This document shows positions 364-25,945 of a stretch of 31,984 nt of DNA, piece by piece. This stretch comes from Paraspadella gotoi (taxonomy: Eukaryota; Animalia; Chaetognatha): contig CM119264.1 in NCBI GenBank assembly GCA_051294375.1, forward strand, positions 20,778,844 through 20,810,827, given 5' to 3'. Each line of letters begins with the position of its first letter. Position 1 is the stretch's first letter. The notes below the pieces were generated by a model. It was not told where the DNA came from and ran no database searches. It saw only the letters and a list, made by a program, of their open reading frames with translations. Made by a program: the position numbers and the translations under genes.

Positions 364-612
364 ACTCATCGCGTCAATGAATGACTATCATCGCATCAAT
401 GAATGACTATCATCGCAATGAATGATTATCATCCTATCAATGAAATACTATCATCGCATCAATGAATGATTATCATCGCATCAATGAAATGATTATCATC
501 GGCATCCATCATTTGGTTATCATCGTACAATCCTTTGGTTATCATCGCATCAATATTGGTTATCATCGCATCAATATTTGGTTATCATCGCATCAATATT
601 TAGTTATTATCA
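364..612. repeat. ~20-23-bp minisatellite (ATCATCGCATCAAT core)
   Basis: Tandem units TATCATCGCATCAATGAATGAC / ...AATATTTGGT; a second array of the same family lies at about 19102-19329. Confidence 0.9.
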
Positions 613-8329: not shown

Positions 8330-8469
8330 AATTCCTACTTCACGCCCGCAAATTCGCGCGTTCAAACGTCACCCGTTCCGTGTGGTTCAACGTGGGATTG
8401 AAGAGGCTGGTTTTACAGGGCGCCACACCCGCAGCGGTGTCACCTCGTGGCGACAGCGAGACAGCATGT

Positions 8470-8550
8470 TCATGTAGTCCAAAGCTTTAGATCTGGCAGT
8501 AGGCCCATGCCTACAGGCGGGTTACCCGGTCCATCCCACTTTCTACATGA
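8470..8550 (-). ncRNA. Putative type-P5 twister ribozyme in BEL LTR (copy 1)
   Basis: UCAUGUAG aaa GUGG GA UGG accggg U^AA CCC GC cu GUAGGC augg GCCUAC ug CCAGA U CUA AAGC UUUGG a CUACAUGA. P5 8 bp, P3 6 bp, P4 5 bp, T1 CUA/UGG, T2 GC/GC. Predicted cut at 8524/8523. Confidence 0.72.
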
Positions 8551-8552
8551 CA

Positions 8553-8616
8553 ACCTCAGGGCTCGAACCAGGGACGCACATTGGGATGGTGCATTAGTCC
8601 ACTGAGCCACTGAGGC
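8553..8616 (-). promoter_or_regulatory. tRNA-derived Pol III internal promoter in BEL LTR (copy 1)
   Basis: A box TGGCTCAGTGG, B box GGTTCGAGCCC, acceptor-like GCCTCAG/CTGAGGT pairing; too short for a functional tRNA. Confidence 0.75.
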
Positions 8617-9259
8617 GCTGCGAAAGAAACAGCTTTAATCCATCTGTGGTGATAGGACCACCAGAGGATCTTCGTAGATAAAAATCTGAATGTCGAGACA
8701 GATTTTGAAGGAAAAGACGAGAGATATATTCAGACGTTTATTTTCACAATAATGTCCATAAAAAGTCCAGTAAAACTGTTATTGGGACGGACAATGTGTT
8801 TCTTAGAGAGCAAATCTAATAACTTGAGAAATGTCTCTATTTTCTTTCTCTCAATGACGACGGCCAAACAAGAGACCAGTAAAAATGCTCAACAGTCAGA
8901 TAAAAGACCGGTCAAATACAACTCAGAGCAAAAACGTTTGATAGAGAGGGAAAATTGAATTGCGAGGTATGACATTTAACACCCCCCGGGTCTAAACATA
9001 GTTTGGACTAAAAACTGACAATGTTATGTTTTGGATAAAAAGATTTTGATTGTAGAAATGTAAATTTAGGTTTGCAGTGGCTAACGAAATAACATTACGA
9101 AATTTCAAGCATTGAAAATTACTTCATGGTACTAGTTTAAAAGTCACCTGGTAAAACAAAATAAAAATGTTTGTTCTTAAAGTTAATCGTAAAGATATTA
9201 AACATAAATTATCTTGTTGGCGACGGCTTCTTGATATCACCGGATTATCCCGACGTCTA

Positions 9260-9570
9260 CTACGTCGCCTCTGCTTCGCCTGCATCATGATTCTTGTTAT
9301 CATTGACGGCGTTGCTTAGATTTTGAAAATACATCCGTGGCGGCAGCATTTCGTCCATGAAGGCATCGTGTAGAGACGTGTGATGTGGATCGTCACAGGC
9401 TTCACAAAGATGTTGAGATTGACAGTTCTTTGCGACGCGGCCCCCGCCTGAGACACCTAAAGCAGAGCTCGTGGTGGGCAGCAACGTCTTTTCGTAATCC
9501 AGAATCGGCTTGGCGAAAATTAGAGCACTGAGAGATAAAGTGTTTTTCATCACACAAAGTGCATTCCACT
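9260..9570 (-). pseudogene. gag: BEL/Pao Gag C-terminal zinc-knuckle region, frameshifted (copy 1)
   Basis: CTLCDEKHFISQC, CFRCLRRG[fs]RVAKNC, CEACDDPHHTSLH; an extra G in a G run splits the ORFs at 9402 and 9260. Confidence 0.85.
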
Positions 9571-11884: not shown

Positions 11885-13210
11885 CATACGGGTATATCCC
11901 TTTGCTCACTGAGAAAATAACAAAGAGAGATGCATCATTGGTAGTCGCCATAAGTTTGTTGCCCCTACAAACTGGTTAGAGCCGAGTTTGACACCAAAAA
12001 AAATACGTTTATAGGTTCGCAACGAAGAGAGAAAGCAAAAGGAAAAGTTAAATTGAAAGGAAAGGAAAAGAAAATGAATGTTGCAATCTTACAGCTAAGG
12101 CACCAATCGTCGTATTCCTTATCTGCCAGCATCATTGGGCGGGAACTACTTCGGCGAAGGCAACGCCAACGCAGCGGCGCGCGAGTTTACACTTCTGGCG
12201 GGATCCACTCGCCGCCCATCACGTGTGGAAAAACTCCATTCCTGACAGAAACGTTGATCTTTGGATGGAATCTGCAAGAGTGTCTTCAACTTGATGTGAG
12301 CCTTTTTTTTCCTCGGATTAACTTTTTCCCCCCCCATTTTCTTCCCCATTTTCCAGCTTACTCATCCCTGGCAGGAGTGTTCAACACCGCTCAACTCTCT
12401 CCACACCCGTGTGGCCTCCTCGATCGCTGCCTTCGACTCCAACGGCGCAACCTCCAACCTGACGCAGTCGGCCAAGATCTTCGGTGTCGACGCAGTTGGC
12501 GCGGCAGGCGAATCCTTTGTCCCGGAGCTCCGTGTGAGAAAGGCAGACTTGTTTAGCTACGAAGGCACGAAGTAGTTCAATAATTTTCTTATAATACTAC
12601 AATAACGCTTTTACTTCATTCTTCTTTCCAATTATGAAATTTCTGAAATATAATGGAATTATTGCATTTCATTATTGTGATTACTGATCAGTGAGACTGA
12701 GGAGAGGAAAAAGAAGTGCCGAAACCCGGGATTGAACCAGGCGACCTTTAGATCTTCAGTTCTAACGCTCTCCCAACTGACTATTTCGGCGGGTTCTTTC
12801 CCGTAATAATAAAAAAAATTATCCTAATTCTTTTCTTCCCTCCCTTTCGCTGGTCCAGGTAACGGAAAGGCGAATACACGATTGGCCATGATGGTGTATG
12901 GAACGAGCAACGGAATGCTGGGAGAGAAAACCGAATGTGGCCATCGTGGCTGGGGATTGACTGTCATGGAAATTTAGGAAAGAATCCTCGACCACTTTTT
13001 CGGTCGGGAATTGGAAAGAAAGTGTGATTAAAAGGAAGGGGGAGAAAAAGAAGAGGAAGACAAGGGATAAGAATTATAGGGGAAGATAAGTAATATTGTT
13101 CCGTGATTGGGTTTTGATGTGGAGGGAATTCACCCTGCCTCAAGATTTTCACAATCATCATTAGTGATTCGTTGAATTGCCCTTGCCACTGGGGATGTCC
13201 CTCGCGTTTT
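11885..13210 (-). pseudogene. Candidate upstream exons of the same MED16-like gene
   Basis: GC-richer blocks with GTAAG/GTGAA donor-like ends; weak collinear matches TSPVARAIQRITNDD (~13200-13155) and PV..ATTND..SLLF (~11975-11910). Confidence 0.3.
12717..12790 (-). tRNA. tRNA-Phe: tRNA-Phe(GAA) with three single-base indels
   Basis: GCCGAAATAG-TCAGTTGGGAGAGCGTTAGAaCTGAAGATCTAAAGGTCgCCTGGTTCAATCCCGGGTTTCGGCA matches the canonical metazoan tRNA-Phe; TTTTT terminator 4 nt downstream. Confidence 0.92.
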
Positions 13211-13950: not shown

Positions 13951-15591
13951 GAGACAGGAGGAAGGCGTTTTTTTAAGAAGGAGACCGCCGATCGTAAGAC
14001 GCCCGGGATTATCAATTGATTAATTGGTTAATTATTTATAAATTAACAAACTAGCATACTTTTTTATATATTTAATTTTAAAAGCCATAATCGAGTAGTG
14101 AAACAGTTCACTATTCCAGTTAATAACGGACGGACGGACTCGGACTTCGATTTTTTCGCATAATTTTATCATAATTTTATGTTCAGACTATATTTTTAAG
14201 TGACTTCCCGACAAGTCCAACAAAAGTGAATTAGGTCGAGATCGTGCTGTATAAGCAAATCCGCACTTAAAAAAATTTAACCAAACAAAAACGTAAAGAG
14301 ACTTAAAACATTAAGAGGAAAGGTCATTCCAGCCATAACAATACGTAATCATTGATCTGTGTAGAGCTAAATATTATATTCGAGAAATACATTATAGTCA
14401 TCAGTAATCACAAAAAAAAAATAAGGTAATATTATATTGTAAACATTCTCCGTTTTCAATAATTTTTTTTAAATGGGTAAATAACAAAATTGTTCTATTA
14501 AATGGGTAAGCACATTTTCTAAAGATTTTGTTTTTTCCCAATCTGGTTACAAGTTATTAAATAAATTAAAAATTCTAGGGTAAAGAAGTTAAAACACGTG
14601 CATATGGCGATAATTTTTATAGAAGCGGGAGAATTAAGCAATTAATCTCGTTAGCTCTTTGGTTTTTTCCAAGTCATGAACAAAATTTTCAGGTTAAATT
14701 AGATGTAAAGAAATTTCGAGCCTACAATGAATTCTACACTGAATTTGCAAGAGTTGCATGCCTAAACACGACTGCAATAATATGAAATTAAAAAATTTGA
14801 TTAGCAATCTTAAAAACATTTGGTAAAAAATTGTAACTAGGAGAGACATTTGATAAACGCGTTCCAGTTAGAAAGAATTCAGGGTTAAAGTTTAAAAAAC
14901 ATTTCATTTTTCAAGGATACAAGTTGAAATTTTAAAAATGTCTCTCTATTACAATTTCCTAATTCAGTAATAAAAAATTCATAAAAAATATCAGGTGGAT
15001 TGGCCTTTTCGTTGACCTGCAACTCTTCAGATAGGTTTCTTTATTTTATATTATAATTAAACGATAATAAATGGGGTTAGAATGCATTTCAAATGCTTAA
15101 AGTGAATACATTTTCGGAATCGCCAGAGCTCAGGCTTCTGAATTGTACTCCATTTTAGCTATTTTAAAGTTGAATTGAATGACCCTTTTTCTTAAAAGAG
15201 ATACTGAAAGACAAAATATATACATTTTTTTATGTATAAATATCACATCCCTCGGTTTTAACGGAAAATCAATCTTCCCTTTCAATTTTTGGAGAAAAAA
15301 AATTGGTCTCACTCTAAGGACGATTTATTATAAATTTAAAGAAATAAGTTATAAAGTAAACAATTATAACCACTTTAGTTCTAAGAATAGTCAATGGCAA
15401 GGTGTATTACTTTTAAGAAATTCCTTTTTTCCTTCTATTACTAAATCGATTTTCAATGCAACTTTTTGAATTAGTTCATTGGGTTGTTGCACTGAAGCTT
15501 TTAAATATTTAATAATATATTGAAGAAGCTGGTTTTACAGGGCGCCACACACGCAGCGGTGTCACCTCGTGGCGACAGCGAGACAGCATGT

Positions 15592-15672
15592 TCATGTAGT
15601 CCAAAGCTTTAGATCTGGCAGTAGGCCCATGCCTACAGGCGGGTTACCCGGTCCATCCCACTTTCTACATGA
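15592..15672 (-). ncRNA. Putative type-P5 twister ribozyme in BEL LTR (copy 2)
   Basis: Same sequence as 8470-8550; predicted cut at 15646/15645. Confidence 0.72.
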
Positions 15673-15674
15673 CA

Positions 15675-15738
15675 ACCTCAGGGCTCGAACCAGGGACGCA
15701 CATTGGGATGGTGCATTAGTCCACTGAGCCACTGAGGC
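15675..15738 (-). promoter_or_regulatory. tRNA-derived Pol III promoter in BEL LTR (copy 2)
   Basis: Same A/B boxes as 8553-8616. Confidence 0.75.
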
Positions 15739-16381
15739 GCTGCGAAAGAAACAGCTTTAATCCATCTGTGGTGATAGGACCACCAGAGGATCTTCGTAGA
15801 TAAAAATCTGAATGTCGAGACAGATTTTGAAGGAAAAGACGAGAGATATATTCAGACGTTTATTTTCACAATAATGTCCATAAAAAGTCCAGTAAAACTG
15901 TTATTGGGACGGACAATGTGTTTCTTAGAGAGCAAATCTAATAACTTGAGAAATGTCTCTATTTTCTTTCTCTCAATGACGACGGCCAAACAAGAGACCA
16001 GTAAAAATGCTCAACAGTCAGATAAAAGACCGGTCAAATACAACTCAGAGCAAAAACGTTTGATAGAGAGGGAAAATTGAATTGCGAGGTATGACATTTA
16101 ACACCCCCCGGGTCTAAACATAGTTTGGACTAAAAACTGACAATGTTATGTTTTGGATAAAAAGATTTTGATTGTAGAAATGTAAATTTAGGTTTGCAGT
16201 GGCTAACGAAATAACATTACGAAATTTCAAGCATTGAAAATTACTTCATGGTACTAGTTTAAAAGTCACCTGGTAAAACAAAATAAAAATGTTTGTTCTT
16301 AAAGTTAATCGTAAAGATATTAAACATAAATTATCTTGTTGGCGACGGCTTCTTGATATCACCGGATTATCCCGACGTCTA

Positions 16382-16810
16382 CTACGTCGCCTCTGCTTCG
16401 CCTGCATCATGATTCTTGTTATCATTGACGGCGTTGCTTAGATTTTGAAAATACATCCGTGGCGGCAGCATTTCGTCCATGAAGGCATCGTGTAGAGACG
16501 TGTGATGTGGATCGTCACAGGCTTCACAAAGATGTTGAGATTGACAGTTCTTTGCGACGCGGCCCCCGCCTGAGACACCTAAAGCAGAGCTCGTGGTGGG
16601 CAGCAACGTCTTTTCGTAATCCAGAATCGGCTTGGCGAAAATTAGAGCACTGAGAGATAAAGTGTTTTTCATCACACAAAGTGCATTCCACTTTTGGCCG
16701 AAACGAATTATTTCTCTTTTTCGGTTTTGATTTTGACTTGATATTAGAAACGGGAACCAGACCTTGAGTTGGAGTCAGAGACAGGACTGGCAATGGAGGG
16801 AGACGGAGAG
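16382..16810 (-). pseudogene. gag: BEL/Pao Gag C-terminal zinc-knuckle region, frameshifted (copy 2)
   Basis: Three knuckles split over ORFs 16524..16793 and 16382..16675, with the same frameshift as copy 1. Confidence 0.85.
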
Positions 16811-18119: not shown

Positions 18120-18840
18120 CTTCTCTCTATCTCTCTTTTAATATTATGTCGCTCTCTCTTTCTCTCTTTTTTTCTTCTGAATAGGGGTAGCCCCTCTCAA
18201 TCGGTGAGTCAAAAATTTAGTATAGGAACATGCTCAAACGAAAATTTATGCATTTTTAAGTATACTTTCAATGTACAAAAAATTTCTTATATGGCTCTAT
18301 ACCCAAATATTTATTTTTTAATATTTATCTATAGAAAGGAAAAGAGCTTGGCCCTACTCAGATTCGTCAAAAAACGAGTTCAGCTCTGCAGCGGCGGTCC
18401 AGCGGCTGTCCAGATTCTCTTCTATCTCTCTTTTCTCTCTCTCTCTCTCTTCTTTCTCTCTCTCTCTCTGATTATTTTTTCTTCTGAATAGGGTAGCCCT
18501 CTCAAAGGGGTGAGTCAAAAATTTAGTATGAGAACATGCTCAAATAAAAATTTATACATTTTTAATTATACTTTCAATGTACAAAAAATTTCTAATTTGT
18601 TTCTATACCCAAATATTTATTTTTAATATTTATTATAGAAAGGAAAGGAGTTGGACCCTATTCAGATTCGTCTAAAAACGAGTTCAGCTCTGAAGCGGCT
18701 GTCCAGCGGCTGTCCAGCTTTCTCTGTCTCTCTCTGTCTCTCTCTCTGTCTCTCTCTCTTGTCTCTCTCTCTGTCTCTCTCTCTGTCTCTCTCTCTGTCC
18801 GATCTCTTGCGTGATCGTGCGTTTTTCGAAAAATTCTGAT
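18120..18840 (+). repeat. Tandem ~310-bp units of a dispersed repeat with CT tracts
   Basis: GGGTAGCCC..GTGAGTCAAAAATTTAGTAT..CAGATTCGTC..AAACGAGTTCAGCTCTG repeated at about 18183 and 18491. Confidence 0.75.
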
Positions 18841-21921: not shown

Positions 21922-23125
21922 TGTGGATAAGGCGCTAAGTGGGCAGAATATGACTATCCGTAACTTCTATAACCCCCTCAAGCAGCCATGGAACGGGTCA
22001 TGGGTTTTGAACCAGGCTTGAGGGTTTTCCACGCCCCCAAGGCGGCTTACAGCCGTTCTCACACTTCCCGCAGGGTAGGTACCGGGTTGGGATTGCACCC
22101 AGTACCTAGTGGTCATGAGCTGATGGCTTTACTCAATGAGTCACCGGGTCACGACTGAAGGTGTCATGCTTATAGGCGGTGTGAACCTAGGCAATGCCCG
22201 ACTACGGTTCCAGTGGGATTCCTCCCACACGGGATTCCTCCCACACGGGATTCCACCCACACGAGATTCCTCCCTCACGGGATTCTACCCCAATGGATTC
22301 CTCCTTATGGAATTTCTCCCACACGAGATTCCTCCCAAAGGAATTCCTCCCACACGGGATCCTCCCAAAAGAATTAGTCCCACACGGGATTCCTCCCAAA
22401 TAAATTCCTCCCACATTGGATTCCTCCCACACAGGATCCTCCCAAAAGGATTCCTCCCACACGGAATTCCTCCCAAATAAATTTCTACTACATAGGATTC
22501 CTCCCACATGGGATTCCTCCCCATGGAATTCCTCCCATGCGGGATTCCTCCAATGAGGAATCCCATGGGGTGGAATCCCGTGTGGGAGGAATCCCGTGTG
22601 CGAAGAATCCAGTTGGGAGGAATCTCGTGTGGGAGGAATTCCGCGTGGGAGGAATCCCGCGGGGAGGAATCCCGTGTGGGAGCAATCCCATGGGAAGGAA
22701 TCCCGCGTGGGATGAATCCCATGTGGGAGGAATCCAGTTGGGAGGAATCCCGTGTGGGAGGAATACCACGACCACCCCCGATTCCATGCGGCGCAGATTG
22801 TAACCCATCCTGCACTGCTTGCTTCTAGTGGAGGGAGGGGAGCAATCCTCAGCAAGTCCATGGGCCTGGAATCAGAAGGTTGGAATACGCTCGCCATGAT
22901 GGGCTCACCAGTGTGGATAAGGTGCTAAGTGGGGCTGAACAGTGCTATCCGCAACTTCTTTAACCCTCTCTAGCAGCCATGGAACGGGTCCTGGGTTTGG
23001 AACCAGGCATGAGGGTTTTCCACACCCCCAAGGCGGCTTACAGCCATCCTCATGTTTCCCGCAGGGTAGGTACCGGCTTGGGATTGAACCCAGTACCTAG
23101 TGGTTATGAGCTGATGGCTTTATAG
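21922..23125 (-). mobile_element. Older disrupted copy of the tRNA/twister TRIM
   Basis: LTR 21922-22205, foldback insertion, internal region ~22785-22911 with the same PBS, and a second LTR from 22912 that breaks off near 23122. Confidence 0.9.
22206..22784. mobile_element. Foldback-type insertion built of ~15-16-bp GGATTCCTCCCACACG repeats
   Basis: Units run forward to 22550 and inverted from 22555 around a CAAT loop; interrupts the TRIM at its LTR/PPT junction. Confidence 0.8.
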
Positions 23126-23289: not shown

Positions 23290-23600
23290 CTTTGTCAATG
23301 GGGTGGGTCAGAAGTTTGATTTGGGAACTTTTCCAAATGAAACCAAATGAAACTGAAAAAACTTTCAATGGACCAAATTTTTTTAAATGGCTAGAAGCAT
23401 TAGTAATTAATTTTTTAATATTTATTTATAGATAGGAAATATCACAAATTTTATTTTGAATTTTGTATTTTTAAAAGAAGATTCAAATAGCTTATGAAAG
23501 GTTATCTACACAAAGTATAATTCTTTTTTCACTATTTTCATGATAAGTGGATTAAAATTGGGAAAAACCTTAAAAAATCATCATCATCCGATAATTTTAG
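23290..23600 (+). repeat. Diverged copy of the 18183-family dispersed repeat
   Basis: TCAATGGGGTGGGTCAGAAG...GATTCAAATAGCTTATG...CACAAAGTATAATTCTTTTT; matches 25620-25945 in reverse. Confidence 0.65.
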
Positions 23601-24092
23601 CTGTTTTTACCAATGTTTAGTAATAAAACATCAAAATTGTAAAAAGTTGTAATTATATTTTTTGCTTAACTTTTTAAGCTTTATTAGAATCAATTAAAAA
23701 AACTTAAAATATCAAAACAAATTTTTGACATTATATAGCAATTTAATAATATTTATTAGCGAATAACTCAAGGCTCAAAACATTTTTGCAAATAAAAATT
23801 TTAACACAATAATTAATACTAATAATGGATTAGTTTAATGCTGTTCCCATTAAAATTTGAATTCGGTCGGCTACCGCTATCTTTGGTAGATTTTTGCCAT
23901 AAAAGATTTTTCCCGAATTTGACTCCTGGTTGAAAACTCTTAGAATTCCGATCGTTAGCTCCTCTTACTTTTACTTTAATTAAAATTTCACCAAATGGAC
24001 TAATTCACTTTACCATGATCGTGTGGATAAGGCGCTACGTGGGCTGAAGATGACTGTCCGTAACTTCTATAACCCCCTCTCGCAGCCATGGA

Positions 24093-24172
24093 ACGGGTCC
24101 CTGGGCTTGGAACCAGGCTTGAGGGTTTGCCATGCCCCCAAGGCGGCTTACGGCCGTCCTCACGCTTCCCGT
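24093..24172 (-). ncRNA. Putative type-P5 twister ribozyme, TRIM 3' LTR
   Basis: ACGGG aa GCGU GA GGA cggccg U^AA GCC GC CUUGGGGG cauggcaaa CCCUCAAG CCUGG U UCC AAGC CCAGG ga CCCGU. P5 5 bp, P3 8 bp, P4 5 bp, T1 UCC/GGA, T2 GC/GC. Predicted cut at 24150/24149. Confidence 0.75.
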
Positions 24173-24179
24173 AGGGTAG

Positions 24180-24251
24180 GTACCGGGTTGGGATTGAACC
24201 CAGTACCTAGTGGTCATGAGCTGATGGCTTTACTCAATGAGCCACCGGGTC
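24180..24251 (-). promoter_or_regulatory. tRNA-derived Pol III promoter, TRIM 3' LTR
   Basis: A-box-like TGGCTCATTGAG and B box GGTTCAATCCC at tRNA spacing; CTCATGA anticodon-loop-like segment. Confidence 0.7.
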
Positions 24252-24499
24252 ACAACTGAAAGTGTCATGATTCTAGGCGGGGTGAACCTAGGCAATGCCC
24301 GACTACATGCCCCCCAGATTGTAACCCACCCTGCACTGCTTCCAGTGGAGGGAGGGGAGCAATCTTCAGCTATATCAAGGGCCTGGAATCAGAAGGTTGG
24401 AATACGCTCGACAGGATGGGCTCACCAGTGTGGATAAGGCGCTACGTGGGCTGAAGATGACTGTCCGTAACTTCTATAACCCCCTCTAGCAGCCACGGA

Positions 24500-24579
24500 A
24501 CGGGTCCCTGGGCTTGGAACCAGGCTTGAGGGTTTGCCATGCCCCCAAGACGGCTTACGGCCGTCCTCACGCTTCCCGC
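24500..24579 (-). ncRNA. Putative type-P5 twister ribozyme, TRIM 5' LTR
   Basis: Same fold; the two differences from the other LTR give G-U pairs (P5, T2). Predicted cut at 24557/24556. Confidence 0.7.
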
Positions 24580-24586
24580 AGGGTAG

Positions 24587-24658
24587 GTACCGGGTTGGGA
24601 TTGAACCCGGTACCTAGTGGTCATGAGCTGATGGCTTTACTCAATGAGCCACCGGGTC
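24587..24658 (-). promoter_or_regulatory. tRNA-derived Pol III promoter, TRIM 5' LTR
   Basis: Same A/B boxes as 24180-24251. Confidence 0.7.
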
Positions 24659-24778
24659 ACAACTGAAAGTGTCATGATTCTAGGCGGGGTGAACCTAGGC
24701 AATGCCCGACTACAATCGTATCATATTAAAATAACCAAATAAAATGTAAAGAAAAATTTTGAAAGCTCCTCAGACATA

Positions 24779-24803
24779 TGAACCTAGGCAATGCCTGACT
24801 ACA
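24779..24803 (-). repeat. Isolated 25-bp TRIM LTR terminus
   Basis: TGAACCTAGGCAATGCCTGACTACA, one mismatch to the LTR end. Confidence 0.85.
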
Positions 24804-25619
24804 CTAGTACCCAAAACCATTCTTGTTATGTAATTGGATCAATTAACGATGAAGACATAAACATTTATGTAGAGAGAATGTAGAACATATTTGTAATGTT
24901 ATTTTTACCAAAAAAGTATGACAAAAATTGTACAATTTTTAAAAGTGAAAGAAATTCGTCCATTTGCATCTGCAGTTGGGTCCACTGAGATAGAGACGCT
25001 CAATGGAGCCATAGACGGTCACTGATTCCACAGATGGACCATCGTTATGCTCTGCCCTTGTTATTTAGTTTCTGTCCCCCATATTCAAAATTGGTTTTGA
25101 AGCTTGAACCGTTTATCACAGAAGAAAAAAAATATAGACAAAAACCGTTTGAAAAAAAAATTAAACTAAAATTATTTTTGATAAGTATGGAAAGGTTGGA
25201 GAAATTCTAGGAAAGGGATTTTGGAAAATGTTACTCGTTTTCAAGATATTTAGATTTTAACGCTAAATATTTTATTATTATTTTTTTTCTTATGAAGAAA
25301 AGTGAATTTGGAAAATCCCTTTAATAGAATAAGGGACATTGACCTTAAGTAGCCATAGCCGATGAAATTTAAATGCTAATGAATACAACGTTAAAATAAT
25401 CTATCATGAGCATAGATTATAGTATTAAAATATTTGTTGTCAAAAATTATTTTTTCGGAGGGTACGAGCCTACTTAAAATTATTAAATTACTATATAAAG
25501 CAAAACAATTTTTTAATGGGTTCTGTTAGAGCATAAAAAGTTAAACAAGAAATATAATTACAGCTTTTAAAAATTCTTACGTTTTCTTAGTAAAAATTTA
25601 AAAAAACTAATAAAATCAT

Positions 25620-25945
25620 CAAAAGATGATGATGATGACAATTTTTTATGGTTTTTCTTTTTTTGACCTACTTATCATAAAAATATTTAAAAAAGAATTA
25701 TACTTTGTGCAGACAACTTTTTATGAGCTATCTGAATCTGGTCTTAAAATTTAAAATTTCTAAAAAAAATTTTTGACCTTTCTTATCTATAAATAAATAT
25801 TAAAAAAATAATTACTAGGGTATAGAGCCATATAAGAAATTTTTTGTCCATTTAAGGTATTCTTAAAAATGTCTAAATTTTCGTTTGAGCTTGTACTCAT
25901 TCTAAATTTTTGACTCACCCCATTGAGTGCGGCTACCCCTACCTT
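25620..25945 (-). repeat. Inverted copy of the 18183-family dispersed repeat
   Basis: Reverse complement reads GGGTAGCCGCACTCAATGGGGTGAGTCAAAAATTTAG... Confidence 0.75.

Follow-up and report, generated by a model that had tools for sequence, protein, structure and literature searches.

The 31,984-nt stretch of Paraspadella gotoi DNA analysed here (contig CM119264.1, positions 20,778,844 to 20,810,827; hereafter the window) is a draft sequence, rich in repeats and eukaryotic in character, that carries on its minus strand a complete small long terminal repeat (LTR) element, E1, at 24022-24714. E1 consists of two 286-bp LTRs and a 121-bp interior (286+121+286 = 693 bp), and each LTR contains a tRNA-like head followed by a motif resembling the twister ribozyme. 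Its features, in the direction of the element, are:

24715-24718, plus strand: right target site duplication (TSD), ATCG
24429-24714, minus strand: 5' LTR, 286 bp, TGT...ACA ends
24586-24658, minus strand: tRNA-like head of the 5' LTR, with an A-box-like motif from 24651 and a B box from 24607 (limits inferred from tRNA numbering)
24500-24579, minus strand: P5-type twister motif of the 5' LTR, predicted cut 24557/24556
24418-24427, minus strand: primer-binding site (PBS), 1 nt past the 5' LTR
24388-24399, minus strand: second primer-contact candidate, 12 nt
24310-24315, minus strand: short polypurine tract (PPT), G6, 2 nt ahead of the 3' LTR
24022-24307, minus strand: 3' LTR, 286 bp, five differences from the 5' LTR
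24179-24251, minus strand: tRNA-like head of the 3' LTR, inside the predicted 407-nt unit
24093-24172, minus strand: P5-type twister motif of the 3' LTR, predicted cut 24150/24149
24150-24556, minus strand: predicted cut-to-cut unit, 407 nt, containing the PBS, the PPT and one permuted LTR
24018-24021, plus strand: left TSD, ATCG

With two direct TG...CA LTRs, a length below 1 kb, a PBS, a PPT, a TSD and no coding capacity (0 Pfam families in the seven stop-to-stop frames of 61-91 amino acids that overlie or touch it), E1 is a genuine terminal-repeat retrotransposon in miniature (TRIM). The interior begins with one C, continues as TGGTGAGCCC, and ends in a final stretch made up of the G6 tract and 2 nt. 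The 4-bp TSD length of the family is read from one intact insertion, that of E1. The LTRs are identical at 281 of 286 positions, and all five changes arose after insertion, one of them inside pseudoknot T1 of the 5' LTR twister. A preliminary description of this locus had already proposed the LTRs, PBS, PPT and a 4-bp TSD, all of which hold.

Each LTR contains TRGCY and a GGTTCRANNCC B box 44 nt apart, which is the spacing found in tRNA genes; the combination was matched by 9 of 100,000 shuffles, and the head proposed in the preliminary description is thereby supported. CAT stands at the anticodon-loop-like position of the 5' LTR head and appears Met-like by eye, and no tRNA match to the head was obtained with Rfam. 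The B box forms the loop of an 11-12-bp hairpin (24585-24616 and 24178-24209), kept in all four LTR copies available (two of E1 and two of an older copy, E2, described below), that replaces the tRNA T-arm fold. A tRNA-Tyr called by ARAGORN at 24500-24592 was rejected, since it overlaps the twister helices and not the head.

The twister motif lies directly after the B box. The conserved core segments U/AA (the slash marks the predicted cut), GAGGR and YCCAAGC are present in P5 order in E1 (the E2 copies fail), together with an 8-bp P3 that begins right after T1, a 5-bp P4 and a 5-bp P5. In the 5' LTR the L1 strand occupies 24568-24564, the palindromic P1 24563-24558, T1 24551-24550 and L4 24519-24512, with P3, P4 and P5 also present. 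Pseudoknots T1 and T2 can pair in full in the 3' LTR; in the 5' LTR the second base of T1 is U, and T1 pairs with a U.G wobble. Through this change the 5' LTR fails the strict twister descriptor that the 3' LTR matches, and the word 'intact' in the preliminary description has to be qualified by the five post-insertion changes. T2 contains a U25-A49 pair, as do 47 of 142 phage P5-type twisters (94 have C-G and 1 has U.G). This comparison set was drawn from 158 distinct sites in viral contigs (loci L001-L168), of which the 142 whose P1 spans 4 bp or more were retained and 16 were dropped as mis-parses or chance matches. Within it, a 3-bp P2 is about as common as a 4-bp P2 (74 versus 61 of 142), and several contigs hold three to five P5-type twisters at tandem intergenic positions. 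Reading E1 as a P1-type twister via a downstream GAGGG was rejected by eye, as five extra bases then separate P2 from L1 and P1 is unpaired. No hammerhead in E1 was matched in the Rfam scans.

The twister descriptor was matched by 0 of 200,000 composition-matched 286-nt sequences (both strands) and in 0 of 100 window shuffles, before the pairing of P3, P4 and P5, the covariant T2 and the position after the B box are taken into account. The motif, the second element of the preliminary description to be supported, exceeds chance. A chance likeness to a twister within a GC-rich, hairpin-rich LTR is accordingly very improbable and already largely refuted, even though the Rfam scores are far under threshold: the whole-window scan made no twister call at E<=1, and in a local scan Twister-P5 (RF02684), whose gathering score is 37.6, reached 17.3 bits (E 0.64) and 15.8 bits (E 1.5). 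The bare pattern does match by chance in very large collections, where a paired P2 with a short P1 is missing in 29 of at least 32 metagenome matches and in most of eight genome matches. Those eight came from a short-P1 scan of prokaryote genomes; two have the first two P2 pairs, neither is palindromic, and they are probably chance matches. A family-specific pattern had 0 matches in metagenome contigs, and no relatives of E1 were found among the 32 metagenome loci of a looser scan (best BLAST E 0.007).

The PBS is complementary at 9 of 10 nt, as judged by eye, to the honeybee tRNA-Trp-CCA 3' end shown by Kojima 2024 (Fig. S2; PMC10886601), and the primer of E1 is probably tRNA-Trp. The 12-nt second candidate site is a perfect complement of the anticodon-stem/variable-loop region in tRNA-Trp(CCA) genes and was matched in 3 tRNA-Trp genes among 119 viral-contig matches. 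It stands 40 nt from the CCA-equivalent end, compared with 39 in tRNAs, and both site and spacing are kept in E2. A literature text search for the 12-nt motif returned primer tables only. We infer a two-part contact with the tRNA-Trp primer.

The older family copy lies downstream of E1 on the same strand, and a short LTR fragment lies on its other side:

21922-23122, minus strand: E2, both LTRs with A in place of twister G30 (22005, 22996)
22912-23122, minus strand: truncated 5' LTR of E2
to 22911, minus strand: interior of E2
about 22206-22790: minisatellite insertion in E2, between the PPT and the 3' LTR
21922-22205, minus strand: 3' LTR of E2
24779-24803, minus strand: 25-bp LTR 5' end, flanked by ATAG and CTAG (3 of 4 alike)

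LTR identity is 203/208 in E1 (younger) and 185/207 in E2 (older). The E2 LTRs jointly split from those of E1 in a two-way pattern at 8 of 209 columns, including A for G30, which E1 keeps. The 25-bp piece is possibly the displaced end of E2, in which case E1 would sit inside an insertion in E2. The minisatellite units, 15-16 bp long, are arranged in two opposing arrays (22215-22551 and 22555-22764) that form a long imperfect foldback with no clear TSD. With E2 as outgroup, the two differences between the E1 ribozyme motifs (24579/24172 in P5 and 24550/24143 in T1) are private to single LTRs and thus represent post-insertion drift. They do give or remove G.U pairs, as the preliminary description had pointed out in support of a functional ribozyme, but they say nothing on selection.

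The organization of E1 has a close parallel in Helenus (TRIMp3; Kojima 2024, PMC10886601), a group whose defining trait is A and B boxes in the LTR, whose transcription by RNA polymerase III is putative, and whose animal members are thought to depend on Gypsy elements. In the portion of the supplement that was accessible, partly through term searches that miss motifs broken across line ends, the LTRs of Helenus-2_SyJa and Helenus-2_SyUm from Synergus wasps were seen by eye to contain a canonical type III hammerhead right after the B box, with CUGAUGA and GAAA core segments, stems of 7, 4 and 6 bp and 12 nt of loop-loop complementarity. Both families use a tRNA-Trp PBS. They look like animal LTR retrozymes with an unreported hammerhead, and ribozymes are never discussed in the part of the paper that was available.

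These are also the only two of the 41 wasp Helenus LTR entries in that material that lack a run of four T residues (T4) by eye; they are close relatives and represent one event. The other 39 have a run of at least T4 right after the head, where these two have the hammerhead. Such a replacement could mean that the chief role of a weakly active ribozyme is to terminate the RNA within the 3' LTR, substituting for a T-run terminator, with linear templates and circles only as a by-product. RNAs cut only in the 3' LTR would keep a repeat of about 100 nt, from the tRNA head to the cut site, and a template with an impaired 5' ribozyme would fit and would explain E2. We regard this explanation of E1 as unlikely. 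The LTRs were identical at insertion, so any asymmetry in cutting must stem from folding context; a ribozyme that acts only as a dimer would cut both sites together; and circles were obtained from every LTR ribozyme element tested so far in the accessible accounts (PMC4918200, PMC7761336).

From the LTRs, TSD, PBS, PPT, A and B boxes and twister core and helices observed in E1, we infer a retrozyme route as the single most likely reading of this Helenus-type TRIM. An RNA polymerase III (Pol III) read-through RNA would span both LTRs, and twister cuts at the two predicted U/A steps would release the 407-nt unit. An RtcB-type ligase would close this unit into a circle, and tRNA-Trp would prime a Gypsy-type helper to copy it into DNA. 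Since the cut-to-cut RNA has no terminal repeat, two full LTRs could be copied from the circle only. The preliminary description was right that the 407-nt spacing of the cuts equals one LTR plus the interior, although this holds automatically for any motif present in both LTRs. RtcB-type ligation has been shown in vitro for animal hammerhead retrozymes (PMC7229834, in the part available), and Gypsy-type copying has been proposed for plant LTR retrozymes (PMC4918200 and PMC7761336, likewise in part). For this route as a whole we see an even balance.

Cleavage would most plausibly depend on a double ribozyme formed between both LTRs. P1 is CGGCCG, a 6-nt palindrome that provides 1 bp in a monomer and 6 bp between two copies. 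The axolotl hammerheads, which cut efficiently only as dimers, have the same geometry of one base pair and a palindromic tetraloop (accessible text of PMC7229834), and it is because P1 of E1 likewise comes down to a single pair closed by such a tetraloop that we favor this prediction. The two LTR copies would pair via their P1 palindromes and swap P2 and P5 strands. Such a double twister would restrict cutting to transcripts with two LTRs, and a circle with one ribozyme would stay largely uncut. The strand-swapped two-LTR fold is nested and, at -231.1 kcal/mol, lies 13.7 kcal/mol below two monomer folds (-217.4 kcal/mol). When the whole transcript folds without constraint, the pairs of the 8-bp P3 and 5-bp P4 form with probabilities of 0.57-0.90. 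In one of the 32 metagenome loci, L179, a complete P5-type twister (383-421, minus strand) has a P1 of 8 nt that is self-complementary. Some 90 nt downstream of it, at 31-297 on the minus strand, lies the C-terminal fragment of a tyrosine recombinase (PF00589, E 2e-4, below cut-off), and we take the locus to be possibly a DIRS-like element.

A number of observations weigh against the retrozyme route. When pseudoknots are disregarded, the free minimum is 19 kcal/mol lower than the swapped fold, whose swapped P1 pairs have a probability of 0.00. To fold locally as twisters, the two E1 motifs would have to give up 10.7 and 11.8 kcal/mol relative to the minimum; the median for phage twisters (n=151) is 4.0 kcal/mol, and only two of them are as costly. 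Most of the E1 twister RNA is expected to be misfolded at equilibrium. Among the 142 phage twisters, those in which P2 is paired have P1 regions of at least 12 nt; that of E1 is 6 nt. P2 of E1 consists of G.U, C-G and then a C.C mismatch, an arrangement seen in 0 of 142 phage twisters and short of a 3-4-bp helix, although the strands could also pair in a bulged 3-bp register. Structure in the 407-nt unit is unremarkable (65% paired; z -1.8 linear, -1.6 circular), and the A box of E1 is without the YGG typical of Helenus. TTTT is indeed absent from the minus strand across all 693 bp, where the flanks have 16 runs in 622 nt and 16 runs in 686 nt, but the support that the preliminary description drew from this absence is lost: when the 407-nt unit was dinucleotide-shuffled 20,000 times, 47% of the shuffles likewise had no TTTT, which is chance level. 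In the accessible Helenus material, T4 runs do occur in the interiors of the wasp hammerhead families, and T4 is likewise missing from the LTRs of fish Helenus, where no hammerhead core was found. The family sample is small, at four LTR copies.

The strongest argument against double cleavage as a requirement is the G30 change common to both E2 LTRs: the E2 template seems to have had an impaired T1 yet was copied once, unless the change came from reverse transcription or later conversion. Any change of G30 lowers relative activity to <0.20 in the rice twister Osa-1-4 (PMC5113685). The same study reports in one place that every non-Watson-Crick change at C14-G30 abolishes activity, which would affect the E1 5' LTR, whose change is C14U; its passage on single mutants lists C14U as tolerated. 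In that study mismatches in P1, P2 and P4 were often tolerated, and P1 was reported to be dispensable. The twister of E1 is best described as atypical in P1 and P2, with self-cleavage at U/A a prediction.

These deviations could also mean that the twister is real in origin but has decayed in this family, and that the family moves as an ordinary Helenus/TRIMp3 element through normal strand transfers and an uncut RNA, which either ends in the flank or is a Pol II product. The P2 mismatch is present in all four LTR copies, P1 is minimal, the folding cost is high and both E2 LTRs share the G30 change. A T4 sits 36 nt past the 3' LTR of E1, where an uncut Pol III RNA would end and could thereby retain a long R region. 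Most Helenus families show no ribozyme motif in a term search of the accessible supplement. However, the younger E1 keeps every invariant core position, both pseudoknots and the covariant T2 pair; its palindromic P1 remnant parallels the dimer-acting hammerheads (PMC7229834, available part); and wasp Helenus has an intact hammerhead at the corresponding LTR position. We consider decay somewhat unlikely, though a serious contender. The retrozyme route that the preliminary description had put forward thus stands as the most likely reading, helped by the wasp hammerhead; it does so with the T4 and G.U arguments gone, an aberrant P1 and P2 and a T1-breaking change in E2.

Among known systems, E1 resembles Helenus as described in the accessible parts of PMC10886601 in being a TRIM below 1 kb with tRNA-like A and B boxes in each LTR, a PBS, a PPT and no functional tRNA, and animal Helenus in its 4-bp TSD; its probable tRNA-Trp primer is shared with Helenus-2_SyJa. 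It differs in its long LTR tail after the head with the twister motif and no T-run after the head, and a motif search gave no sequence match to the published Helenus families in that material. Helenus-2_SyJa and -2_SyUm share with E1 the LTR order of head, ribozyme motif and tail, the Trp PBS, the lack of an LTR T4 and a similar LTR length; they differ in their type III hammerhead with complementary loops (by eye) and in longer interiors with T4. Plant LTR retrozymes, in the part of Cervera 2016 (PMC4918200) available, are likewise non-coding, with LTRs of about 300 bp that each contain a self-cleaving motif, a PBS, a PPT, a 4-bp TSD and a cut-to-cut unit equal to LTR plus interior. In contrast to them, E1 has a twister-type motif and not a type III hammerhead, an internal tRNA-like promoter, a tRNA-Trp and not tRNA-Met primer, and a unit of 407 nt and not 600-1000 nt; its pairing is below the >70% given there, and its circles are only predicted. 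From its sequence, E1 is to be filed as a Helenus-type TRIM. With an active ribozyme it would function as LTR retrozymes do, yet it departs from that class in hammerhead and self-pairing.

With P5-type twisters (RF02684; L001-L168) E1 shares strand order, the L1 and L4 core, T1, T2, P4 and the optional P3; it differs in a P1 cut to a 6-nt palindrome, a P2 of two pairs and a mismatch, a closed P5 helix and its score (17.3 vs 37.6 bits). The accessible accounts of other retroelement ribozymes offer partial parallels. Animal non-LTR retrozymes and Penelope dimer hammerheads (PMC7229834, PMC7761336) share the palindromic-tetraloop helix and dimer cleavage, the short interspersed nuclear element (SINE)-like hammerhead repeats of Schistosoma (PMC6765202) place a ribozyme after a Pol III promoter, and the T-variants in the long interspersed nuclear element (LINE) Perere-3 (PMC8501958) are weak-P1 twisters that still cut. 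Unlike E1, all of these are without LTRs, PBS and PPT, and the T-variants are single P1-type twisters at the LINE 5' end. In the parts of the literature seen, twisters are described only at LINE 5' ends and LTR retrozymes only with hammerheads, mainly in plants (PMC8501958, PMC6765202, PMC13570524, bioRxiv 10.64898/2026.07.22.740005), the last of these, a July 2026 preprint, placing LTR retrozymes primarily in plants. Outside subscription papers, Repbase entries and preprint supplements, neither a twister LTR retrozyme nor a link between Helenus and ribozymes was found in that literature.

Elsewhere in the window, no host gene was found above the Pfam cut-off in 85 frames. Copies of an AT-rich repeat family (23375-23701 and 25509-25843; also 18203-18319 and 18501-18624) flank E1 in opposite orientation and are 78-88% complementary. 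Segments 8397-9570 and 15519-16691 are a duplication of about 1.2 kb at near identity, each beside an N gap, and may be an assembly artefact. Within the duplicated piece, a SINE-like head whose A and B boxes were recognized by eye lies near 8560-8620 on the minus strand; the piece also contains a frameshifted fragment with a zinc knuckle, similar to BEL/Pao gag (CCHC leads <0.9 only). Together with the 4-bp TSD of E1, the SINE-like repeat and this fragment point to an animal as the probable host. At 12716-12790 on the minus strand, Rfam (33.4 bits) and ARAGORN place a tRNA-Phe(GAA) sequence, either a gene or a pseudogene, that has small insertions.

A broader proposal, which we advance tentatively and hold to be doubtful as a whole, is that E1 is the first twister-based LTR retrozyme: an animal Pol III TRIM that cuts only as a strand-swapped double twister and so spares its circle, and that together with the wasp hammerhead elements represents a hidden class in which the ribozyme is interchangeable. 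If the proposal is true, E1 would be a natural double-twister, twisters would have a second genomic role beside the trimming of LINE 5' ends, and there would be an answer to how an LTR-internal Pol III promoter yields a copyable full-length template.
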